From Verrucomicrobiota bacterium (lineage in GTDB: Bacteria > Verrucomicrobiota > Verrucomicrobiia > Chthoniobacterales > Chthoniobacteraceae), in NCBI GenBank assembly GCA_037143855.1, contig JBAWXX010000001.1, positions 43,675-107,674 of the forward strand: a stretch of DNA of 64,000 nucleotides, in the 5' to 3' direction. Below are positions 15,765-53,475 of the stretch, one piece after another. The notes beneath the pieces are model-generated. The model made no database searches. It was not told where the DNA came from and saw only the letters and a program-made list of their open reading frames with translations. Numbering within the stretch: the first letter of the stretch is position 1; each line of letters begins with the position of its first letter. The position numbers were made by a program, and so were the translations under genes.

Positions 15765-15776
15765 TTTAATCAAGTC

Positions 15777-19274: not shown

Positions 19275-19358
19275 TGAAAAAGAACCTCCGCATCTCAATT
19301 GATGCCGAGAAGGTGAAGGAGATAGCGGTTGCCCCAGCCGGCGGCTTTTTTCCTGCCT

Positions 19359-19528
19359 CTAGAGCGTTTTTGGGTTATTTTGTCGCAATGATCTGAGAGC
19401 GCCGAGGGTTGATGCGGGGCTTTTTGAGCGCAGCGGCTGTATTTGTAAATACAGCCCAAGCGCAAAAAGACGCACAGCGACTCTCGCCGCCGAAGAGCAT
19501 ACGACAAAATAAACCGAAACCGCTCTAG
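19359..19528 (-). repeat. Family-A palindromic element, copy A2 (inverted relative to A1)
   Basis: Its reverse complement matches 4068..4236 base for base by eye. The right terminus CGCTCTAG contains the TAG stop of moeB (19525..19527, minus strand). Confidence 0.9.
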
Positions 19529-20703: not shown

Positions 20704-20712
20704 CCGGGAGCC

Positions 20713-21102: not shown

Positions 21103-21279
21103 ATCTAACTATAAAGGCCGCCCACCGTGGAAATGTCAATAGAAGATAAATAGGAAACCACTCAACCGACGCGGAGACAGGTGCAAGCAAGTTTTGCTGG
21201 ATGCCGAAGTCGGGAGCGGCGATGGCAGACGGCGAAAAATCGCTTGCAGATGGCCCGTGGCGATTGAATCAGCGATTTC

Positions 21280-21741: not shown

Positions 21742-21853
21742 ATGGCCAAGCGGAATAACGCCAAAGGGAGCCGTTTTCAATCCAAAAAATGCCGGGCAAA
21801 GCCGGATTGGGGGGACAGTGAAAAGGGCGGTCGAAAAGTGCGGAACCTTCAAT

Positions 21854-22020
21854 CTAAAGCGTTTTAAGTTGAGATGTAGCCGATGATTTGCGAGCGCCGC
21901 AGGCCGGTGCGCGGCTTTTCAAGCGAAGCGGCTGTATTTTCGATGCTGCCCGAGCTTGAAGGGACGCGCAACGGTCTGCGCCGCCGCAAAGCGCGGCTAC
22001 AGAAAAACTTTCCAAAGAGA
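21854..22020 (-). repeat. Family-A element, diverged copy A3
   Basis: CTAAAGCGTTTTAAGTT...GATGATTTGCGAGCGCCGCAGG...CAAGCGAAGCGGCTGTATTTTCGATGCTGCC...GCGCCGCCGCAAAGCG aligns block by block with A2, with many substitutions. The right boundary is approximate. Confidence 0.7.
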
Positions 22021-22064
22021 GGCGTGCATGGGGAGACGCTTCTCTGAAATTCGCAAACACGGCC

Positions 22065-23282: not shown

Positions 23283-23458
23283 AAGACTTCAAGCTAGGGA
23301 AGGGCGGTTGAAACCGCAAGGCATTTGCTCTCGGCGTTTCCCCGGTCCATTTTCTTTCCCCGGTGCGCAAACAAGAGATGGTTGACCCTCGACACGCTCA
23401 AAAATCCATGGAATCCTATGCGTCTCGCTCACAAACTTAGGCGAGCCTACGCCCAACC

Positions 23459-25654
23459 GTGAAACCCGTTCTGCATATCCTCTTTGTTTGTACTGGGAAT
23501 ATCTGCCGCAGCCCCATGGCAGAGGGGCTCCTTCGCAAAATGATCCGCAGCGGCGACGCCATCGAAGCGGCCTCCGCCGGGATCAGCGCCGCCAACGGCT
23601 TCCCGGCCAGCGCGCATGCGGTTGCGGCCCTGCGCCCCTTGGGGGCGGATCTCTCCCATTTCCGCAGCCAGCCGCTGACGGAAGCGCTCGTCGCGGAGGC
23701 CGATTACATCTTCGCCATGACGCACGGGCACCTGGATGTCATCCTGACGTTCTTTCCCGAAGCCTCGGAGAAAACCTTTCTTTTGACGGAATTCCTGCCC
23801 GGCCCGGACAAACGCTCGGACATTCCCGACCCCATCGGCCAGGGGCTGGATGTTTACGTCAAATGCCGCGACCGGATTCGAACGGCTCTTTCCAGCATTT
23901 TAAAGTTCCTCAACCATAACAAGCCCAAGCACCAGCCCATGACCACTCCCACCGCAAGCAGTAAGTCTCTCCACATTGCCATCGCCGCCGACCATGGCGG
24001 CTTTGAATTGAAAAAAACCGTCCACGCCTACCTTTCCGGCAAAGGGCTGCTGGTGGCGGATTTCGGCGTTTTCACCCCCGAATCGGTCGATTACCCAGAC
24101 TTTGCCGCGCTGGTCTGCAACGAAGTGATCGCGGGTAAGGCCGATTTCGGCATCCTCATCTGCACCAGCGGCATCGGCATGAGCATCGCCGCCAACCGCT
24201 ACCCGCAGATCCGCGCCGCGCTCGTCACCACCCCCGAGGACGCCGTCCTCACCCGCCAGCACAATAACGCCAACATTCTCTGCATGGGGGCCAGGGGAGC
24301 CGCGCTCGAGAACGTCAAGAAGACCCTCGACGCCTTCCTCGCCACCCCGTTCGACGGGGGCAACCGGCACGAACGGCGCGTCTGCAAGCTCGGCCACGTG
24401 GGCGAGGAATTCCAGCCCGGCGGCTGCATCGCCAAGGTGGACCCCGAACTGGCCCAGGCCATCACCGCCGAAGGCGAACGCCAGTTTGAGAACATCGAGC
24501 TGATCGCCTCGGAGAACTTCACCAGCCGCGCCGTCATGGAGGCGCAAGGCTCCTGCCTCACCAACAAATACGCCGAAGGCTACCCGGGCAAACGGTGGTA
24601 TGGCGGCTGCGAACACGTCGATGTCGTGGAGCAACTGGCCATCGACCGGGCCAAAGCCCTCTTCGGCGCGGAGCACGCCAACGTCCAGCCCCACTCCGGC
24701 AGCCAGGCCAACATGGCCGTCTACTTCTCCGTCCTCACCCCCGGCGACCGCATCCTGGCCATGAACCTGGCCCACGGCGGCCACCTCACCCACGGGCACA
24801 AGGCGAATTTCTCCGGCCGCTTCTTTGAAGTCGGCGCCTACGGCGTCAGCCCGGAAACCGAAGCCATCGACTACGACGCCCTGGCCACCCAGGCCACCGA
24901 GTTCAAGCCCAGGATGCTCGTCGCGGGCGCTTCCGCCTACCCGCGCATCATCGACTTCCAGCGGCTGCGCGAAATCGCCGACTCCGTGGGCGCGTATCTT
25001 TTCGTCGACATGGCCCACGTCGCGGGCCTCGTCGCGGGCGGCATGCACCCGAGCCCCGTCCCGCTGGCCGACTTCGTCACCACCACCACCCACAAGAGCC
25101 TGCGCGGCCCCCGGGGCGGCATCATCCTGTGCAAGGCGCAATACGCCAAGGCCGTCGATTCCCAAGTCTTCCCCGGCATCCAGGGCGGGCCGCTCATGCA
25201 CGTCGTCGCGGGCAAAGCCGTCTGCCTCTACGAAGCCTTGCAGCCGGGCTTCAAAGTCTATGCCCAGCAGATCGTCAGCAACGCCAAGGCCCTGGCCGCC
25301 CAACTCCAACGGCACGGATACCGGCTCGTTTCCGGCGGCACCGACAACCATCTCATGCTCGTCGACCTGCGGCCCAAGGGCCTCAACGGCAAGCTCGCCA
25401 GCGAGACGCTCGACAAAGCCGGGATCACCGTCAACAAAAACGGCATCCCCTTCGACACCGAGAAAATCACCCTCACCGGCGGCATCCGCATCGGCACCCC
25501 GGCCGTCACCACGCGCGGCATGAAGGAAGAGCAGATGATGCAGATCGCTGATTTCATCCACGAAGCCCTCACCCACAAGGACGACGACGACGCGCTGGCC
25601 AAAGTGCGCGCCCACGTCCGGGAACTGACCCGGCAATACCCGCTGCCGAGGTAG
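23459..25654 (+). CDS. glyA: Triple-domain fusion: low-molecular-weight protein (Tyr/Arg) phosphatase + ribose-5-phosphate isomerase B + serine hydroxymethyltransferase
   Basis: A single uninterrupted 731-aa ORF with a GTG start. The CX5R(S) P-loop is [14 protein letters not shown]. The RpiB block is [15 protein letters not shown]...[14 protein letters not shown]. The SHMT block is [39 protein letters not shown]...[14 protein letters not shown]. No stop codon lies between the modules. Confidence 0.85.
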
Positions 25655-39041: not shown

Positions 39042-39857
39042 CTACGACAGCCGCACAAAATCGCGCAAAAACTGCACCCAGACGAAAAACATGCCGCGCC
39101 AGGAATACCGGACCATCCCCTCGCCCATCGGCTGGAGCAGCCCGGCGGAAACATTGTGGGCGATCTGGCGCTCCAGGTCGCGCTGCATGGCAAGCTGCAT
39201 TTCCTCCGGAGTGGCGGGGAGCAACATCGCGGCCGTCACCCCCGACTTCTCTAAAAATATCCGGTGGCTCTCGATCATCTCGCGCACCGAGCGGTCGCCC
39301 CGCAGCCGGTTGGTGCGGAACTGGGGGGCGAACTTCATCGCGTAGGCGAAAGGGTAATTCCAGGTCGTCCAGGAGGTCCCATCCGCGCTCCGGGAGGAGA
39401 AGCAGAGGTAATAAAACGCCATGTCCTCCTGGTCCACCAAACAGATCGTCCCCTGCAAATGCTCGTCCCCTTTGTAAAAGAGGCGGAAGAACTGGCGGTG
39501 GTCCCCCCAATCCCATCCGGCGTCATCCACCTGCTCGAACCCCTCCTCCTCCATCTCCTCCGTCAACGCGCCAAGGTCGGGGAAGATCGAGCGCGCGGGG
39601 GGGAATTGGGGGCGCAGGGGCTTGACCATCGGCAACCGGGCCTTGCGCACGCGGGTCAGAATCTCCAGCCACGGCAGCATCAGCCAGCTTGCGGCAAAAA
39701 GACCCCCCGTCTCCCAACGGCCCGTGGCAAAGTAGCCCACCAGGAAGGAGGTCCCCAAAATACAGAAAGAGCCGAGCTTGAAGAGGATCGGGTTGGAAAA
39801 CGTCCGCAATCCCATGCTCAGGAGCGCTGCGGCAAGAATGAAAAGGATGTCCGACAT
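39042..39857 (-). CDS. Integral membrane hypothetical protein (N-terminal TM bundle plus cytoplasmic domain)
   Basis: 271 aa. It has 3-4 N-terminal TM helices ([17 protein letters not shown]..., [13 protein letters not shown]..., [12 protein letters not shown]) followed by a soluble domain. No family was recognised. Confidence 0.7.
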
Positions 39858-40002: not shown

Positions 40003-40620
40003 ATGACTGACGATGCGCTCAGAGTTGAACTTCAAAAACGAGGTGTTTTCGTGGCTTCGTTTGAGGATTTGTATAACTGGGGCCGGAAAAACTCCCTCTG
40101 GCCGCTCCAGTTCGGCCTCGCCTGCTGCGCCATCGAGATGATCGCCGCCGCCGCCGCCCGCTTCGACATCGCCCGGTTCGGCGCGGAAGTCTTCCGCCCC
40201 TCCCCCCGGCAAGCCGACTTTATGATCATTGCGGGCACGGTCACCAAAAAAATGGCCCCGCTCGTCGTCCGCCTCTACAACCAGATGCCGGAGCCCAAAT
40301 ACGTCCTGGCCATGGGCGCGTGCGCCATCTCCGGCGGCCCCTTCAAAGAGGGCTACAACGTGCTCAAGGGGATCGACCGCTACATCCCGGTGGACGTCTA
40401 CGTTCCCGGCTGCCCGCCCCGGCCCGAAGCGCTCCTGGAAGGCTTGATCGCCCTCCAGAAAAAAATCGCCGGCCAGCGCCTCTTTGGGAAAGACCTTCCC
40501 CGGCATGCCAACCCGGAAGCTCCCGCCGAGTATCCCGTGCCCGCCTACGGCCCCCACGACCTGGTTCCGCCGTCCAACCCGGCCATTTTCCATCCGAAAG
40601 CCCCTTCCCTCGCCGAATGA
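40003..40620 (+). CDS. nuoB: NADH-quinone oxidoreductase subunit B (N2 cluster subunit) with a Pro-rich C-terminal extension
   Basis: ATG at 40003. Motifs [19 protein letters not shown] and [11 protein letters not shown]. About 45 extra C-terminal residues. Confidence 0.9.
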
Positions 40621-41156
40621 ACGTCCTCCCGCCCCAATCCGTTTTGGACCGCATCCACGCGGGGCTGCCGCAAGCCCGGGTGGAACTGGTGAACAACCCG
40701 GGCCCGTCGGGCCAGCACGCCCTGCTGGTGCACCGCGAAGACGCGCGCCAAGTCGCCGAATTTCTCAAAAACGACCCCGAACTCCTCCTGGATTACGCCT
40801 CCAATGTCAGCGGCGCCGATTATCCGGAATACCTGGAAGCCGTCTACCACCTCTTCTCCATCGCCCAAAAGCACGGGCCCATCGTGCTCAAAACGCGCAC
40901 GGGCGACCGCGGCGCCGACGCCACCGTCCCCTCGCTCACGCCGGTGTGGAAAAGCGCCGACTTCCAGGAGCGCGAAGCCTACGACCTTTTCGGCATCCGC
41001 TTTGAGGGCCACCCCGACCTGCGCCGCCTGCTGATGTGGGAAGAATTTGCCGATTTTCCCCTGCGCAAAGATTACGCCGCTCCCGCAGACTACGAATACG
41101 AGCCGACGCCGCACGGCGACATCGTCCAAAAAGCCGCCGCCACCACCCAAGCATGA
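40617..41156 (+). CDS. nuoC: NADH-quinone oxidoreductase subunit C
   Basis: The ATGA overlap with the nuoB stop marks the start. [29 protein letters not shown] is the NuoC signature. Confidence 0.9.
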
Positions 41157-42289
41157 GCCCCTCTTCCACCTTCTTCTCCGGGACGGCCGACGCGGGCGCC
41201 CTGGAAGTCTCGCTCGGGCCGCAACACCCTTCCACCCACGGCGTCTTCCGCATGAACGTCCGCATGGAAGGCGAAACGGTGGTCAAACTGCAACCGGTCT
41301 TTGGCTATCTGCACCGCAACCACGAGAAGATCGCCGAAAAGAATAGCTGGCTGGCCGCCATGCCGTACACCGACCGGCTCGACTACATCTGCTCCGGCAC
41401 CAACAACTGGGCCTACGCCGTGGCGGTCGAGAAGCTCGCGGGCATCGAAGTCCCGGAGCGCGCCGAATACCTGCGCGTGATCGTCGGCGAAATGACCCGG
41501 CTCCAGAACCACACCGCCTTCCTCGGATTCATCCTCGGAGACATGGGCGCGTGGGGCTCGGCCCTCATGTATGCCTTCCGCGAGCGGGAAAAAATCCTCG
41601 ACCTCTTTGAGGAACTCACCGGCGCGCGCATGATGCTCAACTACGCGCGCTTTGGCGGCGTCCGCTGCGACCTCCCCACAGGCTGGCTTGCAAAAGCCCG
41701 CGCCTACCTCGCCACCTATCCCGCCTTCCTGGACGAAATGGAGCGCTTCCTCACCGGCAACGAGATCCTCCTCGCCCGGCTCCAGGGCGTCGGCGTCCTG
41801 AGCGCTGAACGCGCTATCAACGGAGGCCTCTCCGGCCCCGTCCTGCGGGCCTCCGGCGTCGATTACGACATCCGTAAAGTGGACGGCTACGGCATCTATC
41901 CGCGCCTGAAATTCCGCATCCCGCGCGGCGAAGTGGGCGACTGTTTCGACCGCTTCATGCTCCGCCTGCTGGAAGCGCGCGAATCCCTCAAAATCCTGCA
42001 ACAAGCCTTCGACCAGATCCCCGAAGGCCCCATCGTCAACCCCGCCGTCAAACAGCGCGGCTTCAAGCCCCCGGCGGGCGAAGCCTACGGGCGCATCGAA
42101 GGACCCAAGGGCGAACTCGGGTTCCACCTCGTTAGCGACGGGAGCGACAAGCCCTACCGCTATCACGTCCGCCCGCCCAGCCTCATCAACCTCACCCTGC
42201 TCGAAGAAATGTGCCTGGGAACCAAGATCGCCGACGTCATGGTGATCCTCGGCTCCATCGACATCGTTCTGGGCGAAGTGGACCGTTAA
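41153..42289 (+). CDS. nuoD: NADH-quinone oxidoreductase subunit D
   Basis: ATGA overlap with the nuoC stop. [26 protein letters not shown] and a C-terminal [12 protein letters not shown]. Confidence 0.9.
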
Positions 42290-42324
42290 GAGTTATCCGC
42301 AGATTTTCGCAGATTAAGAATACG

Positions 42325-42957
42325 ATGAATTTTCCCGGCTCAGGCATTCTCAAAGGCATGGCGGTCACCGCCCTCAACACGATTGGGAGCTACTTCGACC
42401 GCGCCCACGCCAAACGCCTTATTACCGAGCAATATCCCGAAGAGCGCCCCACCCTCGCGGAAGCGTCTCGCAGTTTCCCCTTCCTCGTCTTTGACGGAGC
42501 GGACCCGGAAGCCGGGATGCGCTGCGTGGCGTGCAAAATTTGCGAAAAGGAATGCCCGCCCCAGTGCATCTACATCGAGCAGGACCGCGACGCCAACGGC
42601 AAGCCGCTGCGGCGGCCCAAAGTCTTCAACATCGACATCTCCGTCTGCATGGGCTGCCAGATCTGCGTTGAGGTGTGCCCGTTCGAATCGATCCGCATGG
42701 ACAGCATCTACGAGATGAGCAGCTACGACCGCTTCGCCCCGCTGGTCCTCCACAAGCCGCAACTCCTCAAGTCCAACGCCTACTACCACGGCGTTCACCC
42801 CTCCGAAGCCGACGCCACCGATGCCCGCATCGAGGCCGCCCGCATCCGCAAAGAAGCCGCCGCAAAGGCCGCGGCCGCCAAAGTAGCCGCAGCCAAAGCA
42901 GCGGCCGCCGCCAAGGCGGAAAAAGCCGTCCCCTGCCAGCCGGAGCAAAACGCGTGA
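42325..42957 (+). CDS. nuoI: NADH-quinone oxidoreductase subunit I (2x[4Fe-4S]) with an Ala/Lys-rich C-terminal tail
   Basis: CVACKICEKECP and CMGCQICVEVCP. The tail is RIEAARIRKEAAAKAAAAKVAAAKAAAAAKAEK. Confidence 0.9.
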   Translation: MNFPGSGILKGMAVTALNTIGSYFDRAHAKRLITEQYPEERPTLAEASRSFPFLVFDGADPEAGMRCVACKICEKECPPQCIYIEQDRDANGKPLRRPKVFNIDISVCMGCQICVEVCPFESIRMDSIYEMSSYDRFAPLVLHKPQLLKSNAYYHGVHPSEADATDARIEAARIRKEAAAKAAAAKVAAAKAAAAAKAEKAVPCQPEQNA

Positions 42958-44165
42958 TGAACCTGGAAAATCTACCCATCGCCTCCAAACAGGCCCTCCT
43001 GGACGCCCTCCAATGGTGCTCCGCCAAGGTGGGGCTGACGCTGCCCGAATGGCTGCTCGGCCTCGTTTCGGCCCTGGTCATCATCGTCACCATCCTGGCC
43101 ACCTTCCTCATCCTCTTCGCGCTGATGTCCGTCTTTGAGCGCAAACTGCTCGCCCGGGCGCAGAACCGCTACGGCCCCAACCGCGTCGGCCCTTGCGGCC
43201 TCTTCCAGCCCGTCGCCGACGGCATCAAAATGCTGACCAAGGAGGATCTCGTACCGCGCAGCGCCGACAAGGTCGTCCACTACCTGGCCCCCATCGCCAT
43301 GGTCGCCCCGGCCCTGATGCTGCCGGTGATCCTCCCTTACGGGCGCGATATGGTCGCCGTGGATCTGCCCGTCGGCATCCTCTTCTTCTTCGCCCTCGGC
43401 GCGGGAAGCGAGTTGGCCGTCTTCATGGCCGGGTGGGCCAGCAACAACAAATACTCCATCCTGGGAGCCATGCGCGCCATCGCCCAGATGATCAGCTACG
43501 AACTGCCGCTGGTCACTTCCGCCGTGGTCGTGGCGCTCGTGGCGGGCACGCTTTCGCCCGCCGTGATCGTCGAAGCCCAAAGGGGCTACAGCTACGGCTT
43601 CGTGCCCCACTGGTTCGTCTGCACCCCGTGGGGCTTCGCCGCCTGCCTCCTCTTTTACCTCGGCGCGCTGGCCGAGTCCAACCGCTGCCCGTTCGACCTG
43701 CCTGAAGGCGAATCCGAAATCATCGCGGGCCATCTTACCGAGTATTCCGGGTTCAAATACGCCATCTTCTTCATGGCGGAATACGTCGGCATGTTCGCCA
43801 TCAACGGCCTGCTGGTAACGCTCTTCCTGGGCGGCTATCAAGCGCCGTTCCCCTTCCTGGAATGGATCCCCTCCTGGTGCTGGTTCTTTGCGAAGCTCTG
43901 GGCCGTCGCGCTCTCCATGGTCTGGGTGCGCACCACGCTCCCCCGCTTCCGCATCGACCAGATGATGCAATTCGCCTGGAAATTCATGCTCCCGATGAGC
44001 TTCGTCGCGCTGCTCGCGGCGGCGGCCTGGCACTACGCCGGGCGGGGGCCCGCGGCCTGGGGGATTTCCGCGCTGGTCATCCTCATCCCCTATCTCCTCT
44101 TGGGCCATTTTTGCTTCACCCGGCAGCATTCCGCCACCAACCGCCGGTATTATTACTCCGAGTAA
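42957..44165 (+). CDS. nuoH: NADH-quinone oxidoreductase subunit H
   Basis: The start overlaps the nuoI stop (TGATG). ERKLLARAQNRYGPNRVGPCGLFQPVADGIKM and ESNRCPFDLPEGESE. There is an N-terminal extension of about 25 aa. Confidence 0.9.
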   Translation: MNLENLPIASKQALLDALQWCSAKVGLTLPEWLLGLVSALVIIVTILATFLILFALMSVFERKLLARAQNRYGPNRVGPCGLFQPVADGIKMLTKEDLVPRSADKVVHYLAPIAMVAPALMLPVILPYGRDMVAVDLPVGILFFFALGAGSELAVFMAGWASNNKYSILGAMRAIAQMISYELPLVTSAVVVALVAGTLSPAVIVEAQRGYSYGFVPHWFVCTPWGFAACLLFYLGALAESNRCPFDLPEGESEIIAGHLTEYSGFKYAIFFMAEYVGMFAINGLLVTLFLGGYQAPFPFLEWIPSWCWFFAKLWAVALSMVWVRTTLPRFRIDQMMQFAWKFMLPMSFVALLAAAAWHYAGRGPAAWGISALVILIPYLLLGHFCFTRQHSATNRRYYYSE

Positions 44166-44166
44166 C

Positions 44167-44739
44167 ATGCACGCGCTTTTCCAAAAAATCGCCTCGCTGC
44201 CGTGGGAGCAACTCCCTCAGTGGCTCTTTCTGATCCCCGGCCTGCTCATGCTGCTGGCTGCTGCCGCCGCCGTCTGCCTGCGCAACCTGGTCCACAGCGC
44301 GCTCTGCCTCGTCGCCAGCTTCATCGCGTTGGGCGTCCTCTTCATGGCGCTGGGCGCGGAGTTCGTCGGCTTCGTCCAGCTCCTTGTCTACGTCGGCGCG
44401 GTCGCCATGCTGATCCTCTTCGCCATCCTGCTCACCCCGGCGGGCGAAGTCCTGGCCAGCAACAACCCGCTGCGCAACTTCCGCCTTTCCAGCGCGCTCC
44501 ACGCCGCCGCCGGAGCCGCCGTCGCCTTCCTCGTCCTGGTGGGGCTGCTCGCCGCCATTGCGTTCAGCCCGCGCGCTGCGAGCGCCGTGCTTCCCGCCCA
44601 GGCCGCCGCCGCGCCGGTCGCGCTGATCGGCGAGAACCTCTTAACCCACACGCTGCTCCCGCTGCTCGGCATCGCCGTTCTGCTCACCGCCGCCCTCGTC
44701 GGAGCCGCCCTCATCGCCAAGGAGGACTCGCAATCATGA
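44167..44739 (+). CDS. nuoJ: NADH-quinone oxidoreductase subunit J
   Basis: 190 aa and hydrophobic. GAEFVGFVQLLVYVGAVAMLILFAI is typical of NuoJ. Confidence 0.85.
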   Translation: MHALFQKIASLPWEQLPQWLFLIPGLLMLLAAAAAVCLRNLVHSALCLVASFIALGVLFMALGAEFVGFVQLLVYVGAVAMLILFAILLTPAGEVLASNNPLRNFRLSSALHAAAGAAVAFLVLVGLLAAIAFSPRAASAVLPAQAAAAPVALIGENLLTHTLLPLLGIAVLLTAALVGAALIAKEDSQS

Positions 44740-45044
44740 TGCTCCAAATCCTGCTCGCCCTTTCCGCCGCGCTCTTCGCGCTCGGCCTGCTGGCCGCGCT
44801 CACCCGCCGCAACGCCATCATGATCCTGATCGGCATCGAACTGATGCTCGGCGCGGGCAACCTGAACTTCATCTCCTTCTGGAAATTCAGCGCCCACCCG
44901 GAAAACCTCACCGGCATCATGTTCGCCATCTTCTCCATTGCGATTGCCGCCGCCGAAGCCGCCGTGGGGCTCGCCATCATCATCCAGGTCCACCGCCGCC
45001 TGCACAGCGTGGATGTGGACCAAGCCAACCAGTTGAAAGGGTAA
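44736..45044 (+). CDS. nuoK: NADH-quinone oxidoreductase subunit K
   Basis: ATGA overlap with the nuoJ stop. 102 aa. LIGIELMLGAGNLNF and AAAEAAVGLAII. Confidence 0.9.
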   Translation: MMLQILLALSAALFALGLLAALTRRNAIMILIGIELMLGAGNLNFISFWKFSAHPENLTGIMFAIFSIAIAAAEAAVGLAIIIQVHRRLHSVDVDQANQLKG

Positions 45045-45053
45045 ACGACCAAG

Positions 45054-47078
45054 ATGGAAAATATCGTCATTATTGCGGCCGTGCTTGTTCCGTTACTACC
45101 CTTGCTTGCTGCGGGGCTAACCGCGTTTCTGAAACGGGAGCAACGTGGACTTTCCGCTTCACTAGTGATCGGAGCCCAAGCCATTGCGTGTGCAATCAGC
45201 TTTTATTTGCTTCTCTTTGCGATGGTTGAAGATAAGGGCGAGCCGGGCATTGTGCGCTCGTTCTTTAATTTTAGTTGGCTCACCTTCGGCCACGAAACAC
45301 TCCAACTCGGTCTGCTGCTTGATCCTCTGAGCGCCGGGATGGCCGCAATGGTCAGCTTTGTTTCGCTGCTCATCTTCATCTACAGCCTCGGCTACATGCA
45401 TGAAGACCGGAATTTCACCCGCTTTTTCACCTTCCTTGGCCTCTTCTCCGGCGCGATGCTCGGGGTCGTTCTCTCCAACAGCCTGCTCCTGACGTTCGTC
45501 GCGTGGGAACTGGTGGGCCTTGCGTCCTACTTGCTCATCGGCTTCTGGTTCCACAAGCCGGAAGCGGCGGCTGCCGCCAAGAAAGCCTTCATCACCACGC
45601 GCGTGGGCGACATGGGTCTGCTCATCGGCATGTTCTGGCTCTACAAAGCCAGCGGCACACTCCTCTTTTACGATCACGGCGCGGGCTGCCTGGAACAAAC
45701 GGCGCTCGCCTCGATGGCGAAAATCGGCTTCTGCGGCATGGCGCTTTCCAACGTCATCGCGCTCCTGATCTTCTGCGGCGCGGCGGGCAAATCGGGCCAG
45801 TTCCCGCTGCATGTCTGGCTGCCGGACGCCATGGAAGGCCCCACACCTGTCAGCGCCTTGATCCATGCCGCCACGATGGTCGCCGCGGGCGTCTACCTCG
45901 TCGCGCGCGTCTTCCCGATCTTCACCGCCACCGGGCCGCACTCGGCGTCCCTGCTTGCCGTCGCGGGCATCGGCGCGTTCACCGCCCTCTTCGCCGCGCT
46001 GATCGCCGTCGCCCAGGTGGACATCAAGCGCATCCTCGCCTACTCCACTGTCTCGCAGCTTGGCTTCATGATGCTGGCGCTCGGCGTCGGCAGCGTCGGG
46101 GCCGCAATGCTCCACCTCCTTGCCCACGCCTTTTTCAAAGCCCTCCTCTTCCTCGGCGCGGGCTCCGTCATCCACGGCATCCACGAAGAACAGGACATCC
46201 GCAACATGGGCGGCCTCTGGCGCAAGATGCCGGTGACGTTCATGACCTACACCGTCGGCATGCTGGCGCTGGCCGGGTTCCCGGTCCTCTTCTCGGGGTT
46301 CTGGAGCAAAGACGCCATCCTGCACGCCGCGCACCTGTGGCCCGTCTCGCAGGCCCCCTTCTACATGGCCGTCGCCGCCGCGTTCCTGACAGCCTTCTAC
46401 ATGACGCGCCAAATGGCCTACGTTTTCTTTGGCGACTACCGGGGCAACGCCGCCCATCCGCACGAAAGCCCGGACGTCATGACGATCCCGCTCGTGCTCC
46501 TGGCCGCCGCGGCCCTCCTGATGTCGCTCCCCGCCACGCCCGCCTGGCCGTGGTATGAGGAATTCCTGGCCGGGAAAACGCCCGCGCTCGAACTCGCCGC
46601 CCTGTGGGAGCCCGGCTTCCTCCACATCGCCACAACCTCCCTGGCGATTGTCTTCTTCGGCATCGGCCTGGGCTGGCTCGTCTACGGACGCCGCGCGCTG
46701 GGAGACGTCGATCCGCTGCAAGCCGCCGCCGCGCCGCTCTACCGCGCCCTGGCCAACCGTCTCTACGTGGACGAACTTTACCACGCCACGCTGGTGCGCC
46801 CTCTGCGCGGCGTCGGCTACGTGATGGCCTGGGTGGACCGTCAAATCCTCGCGGGCATCGTTCGCGCCGTCGCGTGGGTTTCCTTCCTGGTCTCGGCCAT
46901 CAGCAACGGCATGGACCGCTTCCTCATCAACTTCGGCTTCGATTCTTCCTGCGATGCCCTGCGCGAATACGGCGGCGGCATCGCCTCGTGCGAGGGCGGG
47001 CGCGTGCAAGGCTATCTGCGCGTGCTATGCATCGGGATCGTCGCCCTCCTCGCCCTCGTTGGCTGGCTTTTAGCGTAA
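45054..47078 (+). CDS. nuoL: NADH-quinone oxidoreductase subunit L, long form (674 aa)
   Basis: GKSGQFPLHVWLPDAMEGPTPVSALIHAATMVAAGVYL. The C-terminal lateral-helix region appears expanded (see findings). Confidence 0.9.
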   Translation: MENIVIIAAVLVPLLPLLAAGLTAFLKREQRGLSASLVIGAQAIACAISFYLLLFAMVEDKGEPGIVRSFFNFSWLTFGHETLQLGLLLDPLSAGMAAMVSFVSLLIFIYSLGYMHEDRNFTRFFTFLGLFSGAMLGVVLSNSLLLTFVAWELVGLASYLLIGFWFHKPEAAAAAKKAFITTRVGDMGLLIGMFWLYKASGTLLFYDHGAGCLEQTALASMAKIGFCGMALSNVIALLIFCGAAGKSGQFPLHVWLPDAMEGPTPVSALIHAATMVAAGVYLVARVFPIFTATGPHSASLLAVAGIGAFTALFAALIAVAQVDIKRILAYSTVSQLGFMMLALGVGSVGAAMLHLLAHAFFKALLFLGAGSVIHGIHEEQDIRNMGGLWRKMPVTFMTYTVGMLALAGFPVLFSGFWSKDAILHAAHLWPVSQAPFYMAVAAAFLTAFYMTRQMAYVFFGDYRGNAAHPHESPDVMTIPLVLLAAAALLMSLPATPAWPWYEEFLAGKTPALELAALWEPGFLHIATTSLAIVFFGIGLGWLVYGRRALGDVDPLQAAAAPLYRALANRLYVDELYHATLVRPLRGVGYVMAWVDRQILAGIVRAVAWVSFLVSAISNGMDRFLINFGFDSSCDALREYGGGIASCEGGRVQGYLRVLCIGIVALLALVGWLLA

Positions 47079-47083
47079 CCTGC

Positions 47084-48595
47084 ATGAGCAATTCTCTCAC
47101 CATCCTGACCTTTCTGCCGCTCCTCGGGGCGCTTCTCGTGGTGCTTATCCCCGCGCGAAAGACCGTCCTCCTCCGCGCCGTGGGGATAGTGATCACCCTC
47201 GCCGCCCTGGCCTTCGCCCTCGGCCTCGCCTTCCAATACGACCGGGCAGCGGGCGGGCTGCAATACCTGGAGCAGCGCGCCTGGATTCCCTCGCTGCACA
47301 TCGAGTATTACCTGGCCGCCGACGGCCTGAGCCTCCTCCTGCTCGTCCTCGCCGCGTTAGTGACCCCCTTCGCCCTCTTCGCGCTGGGCGACCGCTCCAC
47401 CAAGCTCGGCGTCGGCCTCATCCTGGCGCTGGAAACCACCCTCTTCGGCACATTCACGGCGCTCAACTTCATCCACTGGTTCCTCTACTACGAACTGAGC
47501 CTCGTCCCGGCCTTCCTCTTGATCCGCATGGGCGGAAGCGCGAAGGCCACCGCCGCCGCCACGCAGTTCTTCATCTACACCCTCTTCGCCGGGTTCGCCA
47601 TGCTGCTCGGCTTCCTGGCCATCCACCAGGCCACGGGGACCTTCAATTTGAGCGAGCTTGCCGGGCTCGCCCACAAAGCCAAACTCGGGCATGCCCTCAG
47701 CGCCGCCTTCCCCGGCCTGCCATGGATCAACCTCCTTGTATTTGGCGGGATCTTCGCCGGGCTCGCCGTCAAAGTCCCCGTCGTCCCCTTCCACACCTGG
47801 CTGCCCGACGCGTATGCCGAAGCTCCCGCGCCCGTTTCGATGCTGCTCACCGGCCTCCTTTCCAAAATGGGCGTCTACGGGTTCCTGCGGCTGCTCATAC
47901 CCCTTTTCCCGGGGCTGATGCAGCACCTGCAACTCCCCCTCTTCGGCTTCGCGCTCGTCACCATCATCTACTCCGCGCTCGCCGCGCTCGGGCAGAAGGA
48001 TCTTAAGCGAATCGTCGCCTACTCCTCCATCAACCACCTCGGCTACTGCCTGCTCGGCCTCTTCGCCGTCACCGCCACGCTGCACGGCCCCGTCAACGAC
48101 CGGGCCGCCGCGATGAACGGCGTGCTCCTCCAAATCTTCAACCACGGCCTCACCGCCGCCGCCCTCTTCTGCTTCATCGGCTTCATCGAGCGGCGCAGCG
48201 GCGGCCTGCGCGGCTTGAACGACTTCGGCGGGCTGCGCGACGCGGCCCCCGTGCTCGCCGGACTGATGGGCATCGCCCTTTTCTCCTCGCTCGGCCTGCC
48301 CGGCCTGAACGGTTTCGCGGGCGAATTCCTGATCTTCAAGGGAGCCTTCGCCCTCGCGCCGCTGCCCTCTGCGCTCGCCGCCATCGGGCTTTTCGTTACC
48401 GCCGTCTTCCTGCTCACGCTCATTGAGCGGGTCTTCACCGGCCCGCTGGACGCCGGTTGGCTCACCTTCCCCGACCTCACGGTGGGCGAACGCTTCACCG
48501 TAGCCCCCGCCATCGCGCTAATGTTCGTGCTGGGCATCTGCCCGCAGATCCTCATCGCTCTCTTCAACCAAACGGTCCTCCACCTTCTGCCATAA
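47084..48595 (+). CDS. nuoM: NADH-quinone oxidoreductase subunit M, copy 1
   Basis: ATG at 47084. VPFHTWLPDAYAEAPAPVSMLLTGLLSKMGVYGFLR and DLKRIVAYSSINHLGY. Confidence 0.85.
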   Translation: MSNSLTILTFLPLLGALLVVLIPARKTVLLRAVGIVITLAALAFALGLAFQYDRAAGGLQYLEQRAWIPSLHIEYYLAADGLSLLLLVLAALVTPFALFALGDRSTKLGVGLILALETTLFGTFTALNFIHWFLYYELSLVPAFLLIRMGGSAKATAAATQFFIYTLFAGFAMLLGFLAIHQATGTFNLSELAGLAHKAKLGHALSAAFPGLPWINLLVFGGIFAGLAVKVPVVPFHTWLPDAYAEAPAPVSMLLTGLLSKMGVYGFLRLLIPLFPGLMQHLQLPLFGFALVTIIYSALAALGQKDLKRIVAYSSINHLGYCLLGLFAVTATLHGPVNDRAAAMNGVLLQIFNHGLTAAALFCFIGFIERRSGGLRGLNDFGGLRDAAPVLAGLMGIALFSSLGLPGLNGFAGEFLIFKGAFALAPLPSALAAIGLFVTAVFLLTLIERVFTGPLDAGWLTFPDLTVGERFTVAPAIALMFVLGICPQILIALFNQTVLHLLP

Positions 48596-50124
48596 TGCCG
48601 ACCGATTTTTTCCCCACCGCCACGCTCCTCTCCGCCCTGCTGGGCATCGTCCTGATTCTGCTGCTGCCGCCCCGCTTCGGCGGCGCGGCCAAATGGATCG
48701 CGCTCCTGTCCGGCCTCACCGGCTTCGGCTTCGCCGTGGCCGCCTTCCGCGCCTACAACATGGCGCCCGGCGCGTATCCAATGCAGTTCCGGATCAACGT
48801 CGCATGGGTGGAAAGCCTCGGCATCAGCTTCGCCACCGGCGTGGACGGCGTGAGCCTGGTCCTTTTACTGCTCACCGGCATCATCGCCATCACCGGCGTC
48901 CTCTTCTCCTGGAACGTCACCCAGCAGCCGCGCGCCTTCTTCGCTCTTTTCCTGACGATCATCGGCGGCGTCTACGGCGTCTTCCAGAGCCTGGACCTCT
49001 TCCTCCTCTTCGTCTTCTACGAGATCGTCATCATCCCGAAATATTTTCTGATTTCCAACTGGGGCTCCACCAACCGGGAATACGGGGCGATGAAACTGAC
49101 CATCTACTCCGTGGCCGGAAGCGCGCTCATCCTGCTGGGCATCCTGGGCATCTACGTCCTCGCCCCTGACGTGACCTTAAACCTCCAGTCGCTGGCGAAA
49201 TTCCATTTCCCGCACGCCTTCCAATTATGGGCCTTCCCGGTCCTGTTCATCGGCTTCGGCGTCCTGGCGGGCCTCTGGCCCTTCCACACGTGGGCACCCA
49301 CCGGCCACGTCGCCGCCCCCACCGCCGTCTCCATGCTGCTGGCGGGCGTCGTCATGAAGCTCGGCTCCTACGGCGCGCTGCGCGTGGCCATGACGCTCTT
49401 CCCCGAGGGCCTCGCCGCATGGCGAATGCCCCTCGCCATCCTCGCCACCATCGGCCTCGTCTACGGCGCGCTCGTCGCCCTCGCGCAGAAGGATCTTAAA
49501 TTCGTCGTCGGCTACTCCAGCATCAACCACATGGGCTTCGTCCTGCTGGGCCTCCTGACCCTCAACAGCCTGGGGCTGACCGGCGCGGTGCTACAGATGT
49601 TCTCGCACGGACTCATCGGCGGCCTCCTGTTCGCCGTCGTCGGGCGGATGCTCTACGACCGGACCCACACCCGTGACATCAGCACCCTCGGCGGCATGGG
49701 GCTTGCCAAGGCGCTGCCGTTCGCCGCCTTCACCTTCACCCTCGCCTCGGCGGCCTCCATGGGGCTGCCAGGGTTCAGCGGATTCATCGCGGAAATCTCC
49801 ATCCTGCTCGGCGCTTGGAAAGCCTTCCCCGTCCTGCTCGTCTTCGCCATGCTGGGCGTCGGCATCACCGTCGCCTTCACCTTGCGGGCCCTGCAACGGA
49901 GCTTCTTCCCGTCGCTCGCCGCCGCTGCCGCCGCTGCGCCCGAAGCGCACCATGACACGCCGCTGCCGCCCATCACCCTGCCCGAACGCCTGGGAGCCGT
50001 GATCCTCATGGCCGCCACGGTCGGCATCGGTCTCTTTCCGAAGATCTTGATTGACCCCATCCTGCGCAGCTTCGAAAGCCCGCAATCGCTTATGCACCAT
50101 TTGATCCAGGGGGTGGCGCAATGA
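48595..50124 (+). CDS. nuoM: NADH-quinone oxidoreductase subunit M-like, copy 2
   Basis: The start overlaps the previous stop (TAATG). WPFHTWAPTGHVAAPTAVSMLLAGVVMKLGSYGALR and DLKFVVGYSSINHMGF. These are M-type rather than N- or L-type motifs. Confidence 0.85.
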   Translation: MPTDFFPTATLLSALLGIVLILLLPPRFGGAAKWIALLSGLTGFGFAVAAFRAYNMAPGAYPMQFRINVAWVESLGISFATGVDGVSLVLLLLTGIIAITGVLFSWNVTQQPRAFFALFLTIIGGVYGVFQSLDLFLLFVFYEIVIIPKYFLISNWGSTNREYGAMKLTIYSVAGSALILLGILGIYVLAPDVTLNLQSLAKFHFPHAFQLWAFPVLFIGFGVLAGLWPFHTWAPTGHVAAPTAVSMLLAGVVMKLGSYGALRVAMTLFPEGLAAWRMPLAILATIGLVYGALVALAQKDLKFVVGYSSINHMGFVLLGLLTLNSLGLTGAVLQMFSHGLIGGLLFAVVGRMLYDRTHTRDISTLGGMGLAKALPFAAFTFTLASAASMGLPGFSGFIAEISILLGAWKAFPVLLVFAMLGVGITVAFTLRALQRSFFPSLAAAAAAAPEAHHDTPLPPITLPERLGAVILMAATVGIGLFPKILIDPILRSFESPQSLMHHLIQGVAQ

Positions 50125-51641
50125 ACCCCGCCTTCCAACTTTTCAAATACCTGACGCCGGAATCCTTCCTGGCCGAAACCGCCTTCTTTGTCCTCATCGC
50201 GGGGCTCGTCCGGGCCACGGCGTCCCGGCGCACAATGCTGCTGAGCCTGACCCTCCTGGGCGGTCTCGCTTCCATCGCGTGGATCTGGATCCACCCGGAG
50301 AGCATCAACATCTGCCACGGCATGGCCGTCATCGACCCGCTCACCCGGTTCGTCAAAATCGTCATCGTGGCCTTGAGCCTCGTCGCCTGCGTCTATGCCG
50401 CCTCATCCAACGTCCGCGAGCACCTTGCCGAATACCTCGCGCTGATCCTCTTCTCCACCATCGGCATGATGCTGCTCGTAAGCGCCGAAGACCTGCTCAT
50501 GATCTTCATCGGCCTGGAGATGACCAGCATCCCCCTCTACCTCCTCACCGGCTACCTCAAACGCAGTGCCGCCTCCGCGGAAGCCGCCTTGAAGTATTTC
50601 CTCTTTGGCAGCGTCGCCGCAGCCTTCCTTCTCTTTGGCCTGAGCTTGATCTACGGCGTCACCGGGTCCACCTCCCTCCAAGCCCTCGCCCAGATGCCGC
50701 GCAGCACGGCAAGCGATCCCCTCTTCCTCACCGGCGTCGCCCTCGCGCTGGCCGGGTTCGGCTTCAAAGTCGCCGCCGCCCCGTTCCACCTGTGGGCTCC
50801 GGACGTGTACGAAGGCGCGCCCACGCCGTCCGCCGCGCTCATCGCCTCCGGCTCCAAAGTCGCCGGGTTCCTCATCCTGGCGAAGTTCCTCACCCTCGGC
50901 TTCGCCAAAGCAGGCGGCAGCGCCATCTGGAGCTTGCTGCAACCCGGATGGCTGCCGTTGCTGGCGGTCATCGCCGCGGCCTCCGTCATCGTCGGCAACC
51001 TCGCCGCCTTGAGCCAGAGCAACGTCAAGCGCATCCTCGCCTACTCCGCCATCGCCCAATCCGGCTACATGCTCCTCGGGCTCCTGGCCACGGGCAACAA
51101 AGGCCTCTCCGCCGTCCTCTTCTACGTCATCGTTTACGCGCTCACCACGCTCGGCGCATTCGGCGTCGTGGGGATCGTCGAAGCGCGGCGGGGCGGCGCG
51201 CAACTCCACCACTTCGATGGGCTGCACCGGAGCGCGCCCGGCCTGGCCCTTTGCATGGGCGTCTTCATGATCTCGCTGGCGGGCATCCCGCCGCTGGCCG
51301 GGTTCTTCGGCAAATTCTACCTCTTCGCCGGAGCCCTTGGCTCTGTCAGTTCGCTGGATGGCAGCCTTGGCCTGCTCTGGGTCCTCCTCATCGCCGTCGC
51401 CTTCAACGCCGTCTCCCTCTACTACTACCTCATCGTCCTCAAGCACGTCTTCGTCGTTCCGGCCCCGGACGCCGCAACCGCCGTGCCGCAGCCGCGCAGC
51501 GCCGCCGGGTTCTGCGTCGGCCTCCTCGCCGTGGCAATCCTCGGCCTCGGCCTCTACCCGCCGCTCCTGCTCAACCCGATCTATTCCGCCATTCACGGCG
51601 CGGCGAGGGCCGCAGCAAAAGCCGCCAGCGTTCAACCCTAG
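50121..51641 (+). CDS. nuoN: NADH-quinone oxidoreductase subunit N
   Basis: ATGA overlap at the start. LLMIFIGLEMTSIPLYLL and APFHLWAPDVYEGAPTPSAALIASGSKVAGF. Confidence 0.9.
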   Translation: MNPAFQLFKYLTPESFLAETAFFVLIAGLVRATASRRTMLLSLTLLGGLASIAWIWIHPESINICHGMAVIDPLTRFVKIVIVALSLVACVYAASSNVREHLAEYLALILFSTIGMMLLVSAEDLLMIFIGLEMTSIPLYLLTGYLKRSAASAEAALKYFLFGSVAAAFLLFGLSLIYGVTGSTSLQALAQMPRSTASDPLFLTGVALALAGFGFKVAAAPFHLWAPDVYEGAPTPSAALIASGSKVAGFLILAKFLTLGFAKAGGSAIWSLLQPGWLPLLAVIAAASVIVGNLAALSQSNVKRILAYSAIAQSGYMLLGLLATGNKGLSAVLFYVIVYALTTLGAFGVVGIVEARRGGAQLHHFDGLHRSAPGLALCMGVFMISLAGIPPLAGFFGKFYLFAGALGSVSSLDGSLGLLWVLLIAVAFNAVSLYYYLIVLKHVFVVPAPDAATAVPQPRSAAGFCVGLLAVAILGLGLYPPLLLNPIYSAIHGAARAAAKAASVQP

Positions 51642-51651
51642 GAGCTTTGCC

Positions 51652-52023
51652 ATGTCCCACGATTACCTCATTCTGACCCTCTTCCTGGCCATCGCCCTCG
51701 TCTTCCCGGTCGTCCCGCTCGTGATGGCGTGGCTCTGGGCCCGCTTCTTCTCGCCAGCAAAACCCGGCCACGACAAGCAGGCCATCTACGAGTGCGGCCT
51801 TGAAAGCAAGGGCCCCGCGCGCATCCAGTTCCGCGCCCAGTATTACCTCTACGCCCTCGTCTTCCTGGTCTTTGACGTGGAAACCGTCTTCCTGCTCCCC
51901 TTCGCGGCCATGGGGTTTGTCCAAATCTCGCCCGCCAGCTTCCTGGCCATCCTCGTCTTCCTGTTCCTCCTGCTTGAAGGGCTCGTCTGGGCGTGGGCCA
52001 AGGGCATTTTGGAGTGGAAATAG
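51652..52023 (+). CDS. nuoA: NADH-quinone oxidoreductase subunit A (located last in the operon)
   Basis: ATG at 51652. 123 aa with three TM helices. YECGLES...YYLYALVFLVFDVETVFLLP is the NuoA/ND3 signature. Confidence 0.9.
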   Translation: MSHDYLILTLFLAIALVFPVVPLVMAWLWARFFSPAKPGHDKQAIYECGLESKGPARIQFRAQYYLYALVFLVFDVETVFLLPFAAMGFVQISPASFLAILVFLFLLLEGLVWAWAKGILEWK

Positions 52024-52044: not shown

Positions 52045-52653
52045 CTACTCCTCCTTGACCTCGTAATGAACCTGTTTCTGGCTTAAAATCTTCGATTTAT
52101 CGTCCTCAAACCGGACGACAAACAATAAATCAAGCCCAAGAATCCGCCCGTTTCTCAGGGAAGCCTCGCCCCCGAGACCGATCTCCAAATCCGTGTCATT
52201 CAGCCAGCGGTGAGCCCAAGGTTGATGCGCCCCCCACCAGAACTTCACCATCGGCGCATCCTCCTTCCGAACAAAACGGCCAATGACCTCCTCGGTATGT
52301 CCCTCTTTCGCCTTGGGATCGTCGATGACGAAGCGGTCCTGTAACAATTCCGGCAATTGCACCCGTTTCCAATGATTTGTAACCAATCGCCAGACACTGA
52401 GGTGCCCAGTGGCATGGCTGATATCCTCATTGACCGCCACCAATCGACTATCGGGGCTCCAGTAAACTTCAATGGCGCGCGCCATCGCATCGTACGAAGC
52501 GAGAACGCGATTGGTATCCGCACGCACAAGAAATCCCCAGAAGATATCTGTTATGGCCCGGATTTCCTCCCCGTCTTTGATGAAAATGCGTTTTTCCCTG
52601 AGCGGAAAGCCCGCTTGATTGCCATTCCGCCGGGAAGTATGGTTATGTTTCAT
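52045..52653 (-). CDS. Hypothetical protein (lower-GC, no recognised domain)
   Basis: ATG at 52653 (MKHNHTSRRNGNQ...), 202 aa with protein-like composition. It is convergent with nuoA. Confidence 0.55.
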   Translation of the reverse strand: MKHNHTSRRNGNQAGFPLREKRIFIKDGEEIRAITDIFWGFLVRADTNRVLASYDAMARAIEVYWSPDSRLVAVNEDISHATGHLSVWRLVTNHWKRVQLPELLQDRFVIDDPKAKEGHTEEVIGRFVRKEDAPMVKFWWGAHQPWAHRWLNDTDLEIGLGGEASLRNGRILGLDLLFVVRFEDDKSKILSQKQVHYEVKEE

Positions 52654-52751
52654 AACAGCCAGGCGCCTTGATTCCATTTGCGAGCAAGAACCTTCACCGG
52701 AATGCTCCTCAAATAGTTAGGGGTTTCAGGCGCGCCAACGAGCCAGGGAAA

Positions 52752-53291
52752 ATGAACGAAAACCCGCAAAGTCCATCCAACCACCTTCTCGAACTCCTCA
52801 CGCAACTCGTCCACTCCGGCGTGCGCTTTATCGTAGCGGGAGGGGTTGCCGCCGTTTTGCACGGCGTGGAACGGATGACGATGGATGTGGATCTTGCCAT
52901 CGAGGAAACCCCGGAAAATGTGCGGCGTTTTCTGGCTGCGATGACCGCTATCGGGCTGACCCCCCGCGCCCCTGTGCCTCCGCAGATTTTGCTGGATCGT
53001 CCGGCGTTGGACTGCCTTGTGGAGGAAAAGGGGGCATTGGTTCTGGCCTTTTATCACCCGCTCATGCCGTGGTTGCAGGTAGATGTCTTTTTGTCTCGGG
53101 ATGCGTCCTTCAGTGCTCTTAAAGATTTCACCCAAGATATTTCCCTGGGGGACATCACCATCCGGGTCGTTTCCGCACAACAGCTCATCGCAATGAAACG
53201 CCGCGTCCAACCGATGAGGGCAAAAGATCACGAGGATATCGACGCCTTGGAAAAAATAGCAGCCGATGGAAACCGGGACATCCACTCCTAA
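52752..53291 (+). CDS. Minimal nucleotidyltransferase-fold protein (DUF2204/DUF6036-like)
   Basis: ATG at 52752. The segment FIVAGGVAAVLHGVERMTMDVDLAI fits the G[GS]-x(9-13)-D-x-D pol-beta NTase signature. 179 aa. Confidence 0.6.
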   Translation: MNENPQSPSNHLLELLTQLVHSGVRFIVAGGVAAVLHGVERMTMDVDLAIEETPENVRRFLAAMTAIGLTPRAPVPPQILLDRPALDCLVEEKGALVLAFYHPLMPWLQVDVFLSRDASFSALKDFTQDISLGDITIRVVSAQQLIAMKRRVQPMRAKDHEDIDALEKIAADGNRDIHS

Positions 53292-53295
53292 TCGC

Positions 53296-53475
53296 ATGAA
53301 CAAGTCGGACTGGTGGGATCAAGTGACCTCCGAAGACTTCAGCGGACGCACCCATTTTCAACAATGGACGCCAGTCCAAAAGTTGATGTGGCTTTCGCAA
53401 ATCCAGCGGTTCGTTGCAACCGCGAAAGGAAAGGCCCGCACCGCGCAAAAAAACCCTGCCAGTTCCCTACTCTAA
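53296..53475 (+). CDS. Small (59-aa) helical partner ORF downstream of the NTase
   Basis: ATG at 53296 lies 4 nt after the NTase stop. The product is MNKSDWWDQVTSEDFSGRTHFQQWTPVQKLMWLSQIQRFVATAKGKARTAQKNP. Its 3' end overlaps the bioF 3' end by 9 nt. Confidence 0.4.
   Translation: MNKSDWWDQVTSEDFSGRTHFQQWTPVQKLMWLSQIQRFVATAKGKARTAQKNPASSLL

Follow-up and report, generated by a model that had tools for sequence, protein, structure and literature searches.

A Verrucomicrobiota gene cluster predicted to encode a 2M-type complex I that pairs a classical NuoM with a NuoM lacking the TM7 lysine

Results

Here we describe a cluster of 12 nuo genes in a 64,000-nucleotide stretch of DNA (hereafter the window) from a Verrucomicrobiota bacterium of the Chthoniobacteraceae (assembly GCA_037143855.1, contig JBAWXX010000001.1, positions 43,675 to 107,674). 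Judged from its sequence, the cluster (window positions 40003-52023, plus strand) very likely specifies a whole complex I-type enzyme that falls under the published 2M kind, having four antiporter-like subunits and lacking an NADH module. The 2M complex I is characterized by a second NuoM together with a lengthened NuoL (PMC9040806, PMC6606698), and the window cluster adds one more member to this already published architecture rather than an enzyme of a new type. An earlier note on this DNA had proposed the 2M reading, which is supported by the two NuoM proteins and the lateral-helix insertion in NuoL that we document below; the paper it named in this connection (Chadwick et al., ISME J 2018) exists and is found in the reference lists of both articles cited above.

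Two NuoM proteins of separate lineages are encoded between NuoL and NuoN

The note had placed two full-length M-type genes, of 503 and 509 codons, between nuoL and nuoN, and the coordinates and lengths are as it gave them: nuoM-a, the L-proximal gene, occupies 47084..48595 and nuoM-b, the N-proximal gene, 48595..50124, both on the plus strand. The two genes meet at CCATAATGCC, where the TAA of the first and the ATG of the second have one base in common (the TAATG overlap that the note described), and both sequence motifs that it quoted, HTW(L/A)P... and DLK..V.YSSINH(L/M)G, are found in both copies. Against the NDH_I_M profile (TIGR01972, cut-off 263.8 bits) the products, M-a and M-b, score 432.8 and 432.1 bits, respectively, and neither scores more than 157 bits against the MrpD models, the cut-offs of which are 542-662 bits. 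M-a and M-b are 33% identical to one another.

For 121 antiporter-like proteins, a FastTree tree with seven MrpD sequences as its root grouped the NuoL, NuoN and MrpD proteins into one clade each (support 100), as it did all 88 NuoM rows (support 100). The NuoM clade was also recovered by IQ-TREE from 47 rows under a site-heterogeneous model (Shimodaira-Hasegawa-like approximate likelihood ratio test (SH-aLRT) 99). Both copies from the window fell within it in both trees, apart from MrpD, NuoN and NuoL, and not with the Mrp/Mnh antiporter subunits, a grouping that the note had said would speak against its reading. Within the NuoM clade, every L-proximal M lies in a large clade that contains E. 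coli NuoM, and the N-proximal Ms fall without exception into another, distinct clade, which numbers 23 rows (support 100 in FastTree and 99 in IQ-TREE). This second clade includes six single NuoMs of canonical operons, two from Bacteroidales and four from Verrucomicrobiota, one of the latter encoded by the window's own genome. Taken together, the profile scores and trees indicate that M-a and M-b are true NuoM proteins from two old lineages and not recent duplicates.

NuoL carries an insertion of 25-26 residues in its lateral helix

The nuoL gene (45054..47078, plus strand) encodes a long form of 674 residues. The note had compared this with about 610, and the references are indeed 613 residues for E. 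coli NuoL, 606 for Thermus Nqo12 and 605 for the canonical NuoL encoded elsewhere in the same genome. The protein scores 622.8 bits against the NuoL profile NF005141 (cut-off 556), in Foldseek its structural model matches chains of NuoL, NdhF and ND5 (TM-scores 0.70-0.86), and its best sequence match in the PDB is NdhF1 (6hum_F, E 3e-123). Its closest relatives come from metagenome genomes of Chthoniobacteraceae and other Verrucomicrobiota (87-60% identity) and from Acidobacteriaceae (~58%), and these are mostly ~660 to 710 residues long, bar a few shorter or truncated entries; a long-form NuoL close to it is also found in Fontisphaera persica. The public gene call for the window NuoL is 618 residues (100% identity, 92% coverage), shorter than the 674-residue frame, which is backed by full-length homologues.

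Alignment with the own-genome canonical NuoL and E. coli NuoL put the excess at 61-69 residues, of which 25-26 lie in the lateral helix (HL), appearing as gap columns after the VDRxIL motif (D595) and before the GxVQxY motif (Q652). The note had assigned the excess to this helix, in a stretch of about 60 residues that corresponds to W593 to L655 (63 residues, nucleotides 46830-47018). That assignment holds for the 25-26 residues; what remains is found elsewhere, with ~15 residues in the WPWYEEFLAGKTPAL loop (~498-513), 8-10 in another loop (~208-232) and a small number N-terminally.

Structures of the long NuoL and of its canonical counterpart in this genome were predicted by one method (AlphaFold2). 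The model of the long form (mean predicted local distance difference test score (pLDDT) 81.8) has one continuous helix of 79 residues (569-647; 46758..46994), followed by the anchoring transmembrane helix (TM) 16 at residues 651-673 (47004..47072), whereas the canonical NuoL (mean pLDDT 88.1) is modelled with a helix of 54 residues (526-579) followed by TM16 at 583-604. The difference of 25 residues would amount to ~37 Å at 1.5 Å per residue (~37-39 Å for 25-26 residues of alpha-helix), and ~37 Å approximates the width of a single antiporter-like subunit. Alignment and models agree in placing the insertion of 25-26 residues inside the lateral helix, the location on which the note had made its reading depend.

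The note had further suggested that a helix segment was duplicated. In the window NuoL the VDR.IL and MDRFLI copies are exactly 26 residues apart and can be laid out as two modules of 26 residues (46821..46976), one spanning residues 590-615 with VDRQILAG... and the other residues 616-641 with MDRFLINF..., so that D595/R596 is set against D621/R622. For this protein alone the self-similarity at offset 26 does not rise above that of shuffled sequences (fraction 0.31). Across the long-helix family, in contrast, there is one clear peak of self-similarity, at offset 26 (mean BLOSUM62 score -0.19 versus ~-1.0 at other offsets), with an estimated z of ~5 over 38 long-helix NuoLs. The peak is strong (z 4 to 6.5) in the single-M clades and in Nitrospira/NC10 and weak (z 2.4) in the window's own clade, and in rows such as L030 the repeat is readable by eye as FDNNVIDGIVNG... 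and then FDTYVIDGLVNF... The suggested duplication thus finds significant support across the family and not in the window NuoL taken singly. These comparisons indicate that the helix insert is one further copy of a 26-residue helix module, clear for the family and diverged in the window NuoL.

The long helix accompanies every tandem nuoM pair surveyed

We surveyed 80 NuoL loci with their flanks, taking one genome per species. The length of the span that matches D573-Y654 was bimodal, with 53-58 residues in 45 rows and 82-92 residues in 38 rows; the window NuoL has 82. All 17 L-M-M-N loci, which come from Verrucomicrobiota, Acidobacteriaceae, Chloroflexota and Nitrospiraceae, encode the long helix, and no two-M locus encodes a short one. 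Where the upstream flank was covered, the two-M loci have the order nuoA-B-C-D-I-H-(J)-K-L-Ma-Mb-N and none contains nuoE or nuoF; indeed, none of the long-helix loci in the survey has nuoEFG within its own cluster. The loci in which a span of 82-92 residues occurs with a single nuoM and without nuoEFG are L030, L035, L037, L039, L041, L042, L049, L056, L058, L061, L073, L084 and L087. A long NuoL beside a single nuoM has likewise been remarked upon for Complex_I_1 and _2 of the Manganitrophaceae (Yu et al., PMC9040806).

The window NuoL belongs to a clade of 13 rows (support 99), all with the long helix, 12 of which derive from two-M loci; in the thirteenth the contig is cut. A common origin of all long helices was rejected by an approximately unbiased (AU) test on core columns with the helix excluded, which under the model used does not accept one clade (delta lnL 169, p 2e-5) and which does not distinguish gain from loss or segment exchange. 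This rejection agrees with the published claim that the long helix arose several times. Tandem M pairs are present in 6 of 151 sampled Verrucomicrobiota genomes, and each of the six also has a lone third NuoM. Verrucomicrobiota and Acidobacteriaceae rows (L013-L023 versus the window) are interleaved in the NuoL, M-a and M-b trees alike, which suggests that the entire operon was transferred between these two phyla.

NuoM-b lacks the TM7 lysine and has a lysine on TM5

The canonical charge set of NuoM comprises a glutamate on TM5, a lysine on TM7, a lysine on TM8 and a glutamate on TM12 (E144, K234, K265 and E407 in E. coli). NuoM-a, a member of the lysine-bearing NuoM clade, has the complete set (E137, K230, K261 and E414) together with the two classical histidines (H318 and H354). 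NuoM-b departs from it at TM7 only, where Leu224 (codon 49264-49266, CTG) replaces the lysine, and retains E143, K255 and E400. The same division runs through the related loci: at the column of E. coli K234, every first M has lysine, and 17 of the 17 second Ms have, like window M-b, leucine or isoleucine. The TM5 glutamate, TM8 lysine and TM12 glutamate are retained in all first and second Ms compared, and the two histidines are retained in all but three cases (leucine at the H348 column in two Nitrospiraceae first Ms, and proline at H322 in one second M). The first M carries the full E/K/K/H/H/E pattern in 15 of the 17 L-M-M-N loci.

NuoM-b belongs to the clade of 23 rows described above, which is the lysine-less one. 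Fourteen members of this clade have a lysine six residues past the TM5 glutamate (motif PKY; Lys149 in window M-b, codon 49039-49041), and the remaining nine have a histidine at a site on TM8 (the E. coli L259 column). Among the nine is the canonical NuoM of the window's own genome (G000:C1:23918-25378; L010:15891-17393), which has no TM7 lysine; the canonical NuoMs of other Verrucomicrobiota and of two Bacteroidales likewise have the TM8 histidine in its place. Every one of the 23 has either the TM5 lysine or the TM8 histidine, never both and never neither, and a search for one charged residue common to all lysine-less NuoMs at >=85% conservation found none. Because the two residues are mutually exclusive in 23/23 members, the complementary pattern argues for compensation rather than loss of function, and Lys149 of M-b probably takes over the role of the TM7 lysine. 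The window genome displays both replacement routes, with the TM5 lysine in M-b and the TM8 histidine in its canonical NuoM. No paper reporting the absence of NuoM K234 was found in a search of the literature.

Gene content of the cluster and of the genome

The 12 genes of the cluster, in the order nuoB-C-D-I-H-J-K-L-M-M-N-A, are all intact and tightly packed, and a search with NCBIfam profiles assigned a name to each of them (NuoB, C, D, I, H, J, K, L, two NuoM, N and A), so that the core subunits other than L and M are all identified beside the two nuoM genes. Stop and start codons overlap at most junctions (nuoB/C, C/D, I/H, J/K, M-a/M-b and M-b/N). The first gene, nuoB (40003..40620, 205 residues; NF011394, 331.5 bits, cut-off 312), encodes cysteines at what appear by eye to be the usual ligand positions of cluster N2. 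It overlaps by ATGA with nuoC (40617..41156, 179 residues), which scores 118.8 bits against TIGR01961 (NuoC_fam), slightly below the cut-off of 122.45, and is matched by 16 NuoC models. There follow nuoD (41153..42289, 378 residues; NF004739, 436.8 bits, cut-off 360) and nuoI (42325..42957, 210 residues), the product of which matches TIGR01971 with an E value of 7.7e-23, under the cut-off, and contains two CxxCxxCxxxCP motifs. The genes between nuoI and nuoL are nuoH (42957..44165, 402 residues; NF004741, 313.2 bits, cut-off 305), nuoJ (44167..44739, 190 residues; NuoJ models at E 3e-23, under their cut-offs) and nuoK (44736..45044, 102 residues; NF004320, 97 bits, cut-off 57). Downstream of the M genes, nuoN (50121..51641, 506 residues; TIGR01770, 383.1 bits, cut-off 332.6) overlaps nuoM-b by ATGA, and nuoA (51652..52023, 123 residues; NF005839, E 2.9e-27, under the cut-off) forms the 3' end of the cluster; all of these genes are on the plus strand. 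NuoL, M-a, M-b and NuoN have 2192 residues combined. In related two-M clusters in which nuoA was detected (e.g. L013-L016, L018 and L022), that gene is 5' of nuoB and does not follow nuoN.

The genes of the NADH-oxidising module of the 14-subunit complex I, nuoE, nuoF and nuoG, were found neither between nuoD and nuoI nor in the flanks of the cluster. These flanks contain a resistance-nodulation-division (RND) efflux pair, an aminotransferase, a D-Ala-D-Ala carboxypeptidase and open reading frames (ORFs) without a Pfam family. Three of the latter (39042-39857, 52045-52677 and 52650-53303) have no counterpart among the 80 related nuoL loci; the first of them, divergent and on the minus strand, encodes a predicted membrane protein of 271 residues. 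Elsewhere in the window, a tRNA gene (4248-4332, minus strand) flanks ~20 kb (4001-24000) with a G+C content of 0.57-0.61, as against 0.64-0.68 in the rest, and this stretch may be an integrated island.

The genome comprises 2.94 Mb and is 95.8% complete. A second, canonical complex I cluster lies ~20 kb upstream on the same contig (C1:~8-27 kb), with nuoD, E, F, G and H and with genes for the 605-residue NuoL, one NuoM and NuoN. NuoF-like genes are present in this canonical cluster and on contig C7, and the genome encodes a pyruvate:ferredoxin oxidoreductase (PFOR; 1761 bits). A further contig (G000:C34; L011:6997-13638) has a gene for a NuoL-like protein of 657 residues and one for an antiporter-like protein of 486 residues, both overlapping an ORF of ~1000 codons; this may represent a CO2 uptake pair of the DabAB type.

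Discussion

On the reading we favour, the enzyme encoded by the window cluster would consist of a quinone module (NuoB, C, D and I), a membrane heel (NuoH, A, J and K) and four antiporter-like subunits, with the gene order suggesting the sequence N, M-b, M-a, L along the membrane arm. The longer helix of NuoL would span the added subunit and so let TM16 still anchor. The number of antiporter-like subunits has been linked to how many protons are pumped (PMC10212512), and on the published hypothesis, together with the rule of one proton per antiporter-like subunit, the enzyme would pump one proton more per two electrons than the canonical four, i.e. five. The electron partner would not be NADH bound by a module that the operon encodes; reduced ferredoxin is a plausible one because the genome encodes PFOR. 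As a matter of general energetics, the fifth proton would be paid for by the wider gap in redox potential between ferredoxin and quinone. The same gene order and residue pattern are seen in 17 further L-M-M-N loci across four phyla.

Several of our observations nonetheless weigh against it or limit its reach. Under half of the extra length of NuoL sits in the helix, the rest being mostly in loops, and the model is of low confidence in the distal half of this helix (pLDDT 47-60), as is to be expected when an amphipathic helix is predicted in isolation from its partners. A single nuoM accompanies at least 13 of the long-helix NuoLs, in L-M-N loci of Ignavibacteriota, Planctomycetota, Zixibacteria, Acidobacteriota, Udaeobacter and others. 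When we searched five of these genomes for an orphan nuoM we found none, every further NuoM belonging to a second L-M-N cluster. Because the long helix thus also occurs in single-nuoM operons without an orphan M, helix length alone is no proof of a fourth subunit; the survey indicates that a long helix is necessary for, and not diagnostic of, a two-M cluster. A gene for an electron-input module was sought beside the cluster and none was found, and the electron donor named above remains a candidate only. The TM7 lysine that NuoM-b lacks was reportedly essential in the mutagenesis studies of Torres-Bacete (2007) and Euro (2008). The assembly of four pumps and the stoichiometry of five protons are hypotheses.

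We considered what else the tandem genes could mean. The absence of the TM7 lysine raises the possibility that NuoM-b is a non-pumping spacer or structural subunit, such that four antiporter-like subunits are assembled and the stoichiometry stays at four. Leu224 in M-b and the leucine or isoleucine of 17/17 second Ms fit this notion, given that the lysine is regarded as a key conserved residue and as the partner of the TM5 glutamate (Sazanov's review, PMC10212512). Other conserved residues, however, are kept: M-b and its counterparts retain the TM5 glutamate, TM8 lysine and TM12 glutamate, as well as both histidines in all second Ms but one. Moreover, the TM5 lysine or TM8 histidine present in 23/23 members of the lineage resembles compensation and not decay, and some canonical operons with nuoEFG, among them that of the same genome, have a lysine-less protein of this lineage as their sole NuoM. 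We therefore think an idle M-b improbable. A different proposal, in which M-a and M-b occupy one and the same position as alternative isoforms, with three antiporter-like subunits per complex and the M chosen by conditions, would make the long helix a trait of the clade unrelated to subunit number. It draws on the frequency of long-helix NuoLs in single-nuoM operons and on the use of an M-b-type protein as sole NuoM of canonical complex I in this genome, in other Verrucomicrobiota and in Bacteroidales. Yet the overlap of stop and start codons within one operon argues for co-expression of the two proteins, the order M-a then M-b is maintained, each with its own conserved residues, in 17/17 loci over four phyla, and no two-M locus has a short helix; we accordingly give alternative isoforms only a very small chance.

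There remains the suspicion that one M is an Mrp/Mnh subunit, which arises from the Pfam family PF00361 that Mrp and complex I antiporter-like subunits have in common, or that the pair is an assembly artefact or a recent tandem duplicate without functional meaning. Scores of at most 157 bits against MrpD models, compared with 432 against NDH_I_M, and the separate MrpD clade (support 100) contradict the former; two copies that are 33% identical and derive from different old NuoM lineages, with synteny kept in 17 other genomes, contradict the latter. An Mrp origin and an assembly artefact are ruled out by the profile scores, trees and degree of identity, and taken as a whole this suspicion has a negligible probability.

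With the 2M reading preferred, we can ask where its fourth pump comes from. It seems to us an evenly balanced question whether 2M enzymes gained their fourth pump by recruitment from a distinct, old lineage of NuoM with a rewired charge axis (TM5 lysine or TM8 histidine) and not by copying the resident NuoM. If it is, every 2M enzyme would combine a classical M with a rewired M in fixed order, and 2M operons would constitute a natural experiment on the Glu-Lys switch that couples neighbouring pumps. Complexes with a fourth pump are predicted to yield more proton-motive force per electron pair or, when operating backwards, to drive electrons to an acceptor of lower potential such as ferredoxin. 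The window adds a soil/freshwater lineage of Verrucomicrobiota in which the canonical and the 2M enzyme are encoded on one contig; as the architecture is already published, no textbook statement is changed by this locus alone.

Comparison with known systems

The window cluster resembles the cyanobacterial and plastid NDH-1, which is ferredoxin-dependent, in having the complex I core without NuoEFG. It differs in that the lateral helix of NDH-1 is short (56 residues in L068 and L079) and NDH-1 has one NdhD per complex; no genes for Ndh-specific subunits were found beside the window cluster. With the canonical 14-subunit complex I (E. coli NuoA-N, Thermus Nqo1-14 and the own C1 cluster) it shares the full set of eleven core subunits from the Q and P modules, the fold of NuoL and the classical charged residues of NuoM, which are those of NuoM-a. 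Unlike the canonical enzyme, it has no NuoEFG, a fourth antiporter-like subunit, a helix of 79 rather than 54 residues and an M-b without the TM7 lysine. The single-nuoM long-helix operons of Ignavibacteriota, Planctomycetota, Acidobacteriota and others are similar to it in their 82-83-residue span, 26-residue repeat and absence of nuoEFG; these have one lysine-bearing M, to which the window adds the lysine-less M-b.

The closest likeness is to 2M complex I, reportedly the subject of Chadwick, Hemp, Fischer & Orphan (2018, ISME J 12:2668), as described in papers that cite it. Going by those papers (PMC9040806, PMC6606698, PMC7117926 and PMC12342949), the window shares with the 2M enzymes the two nuoM genes between nuoL and nuoN, a lateral-helix insertion of ~26 residues in NuoL, a canonical complex I in the same genome and, as reported for the Nitrospira clade, a cluster without nuoE and nuoF. 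It departs from the Nitrospira type in having no nuoG-like gene, in the displacement of nuoA to the 3' end and in the presence of nuoH, which is reported missing from the Nitrospira clade-3 cluster (PMC6606698) and was undetected in survey loci L045 and L052. The position of nuoI ahead of nuoH is a further difference from 2M complex I. Finally, the cluster belongs to a Chthoniobacteraceae-like bacterium within the Verrucomicrobiota and not, as in the 2M reports, to Nitrospira or Chloroflexota, and the window NuoL groups with those of Verrucomicrobiota and Acidobacteriaceae, apart from the 2M NuoLs of Nitrospira.

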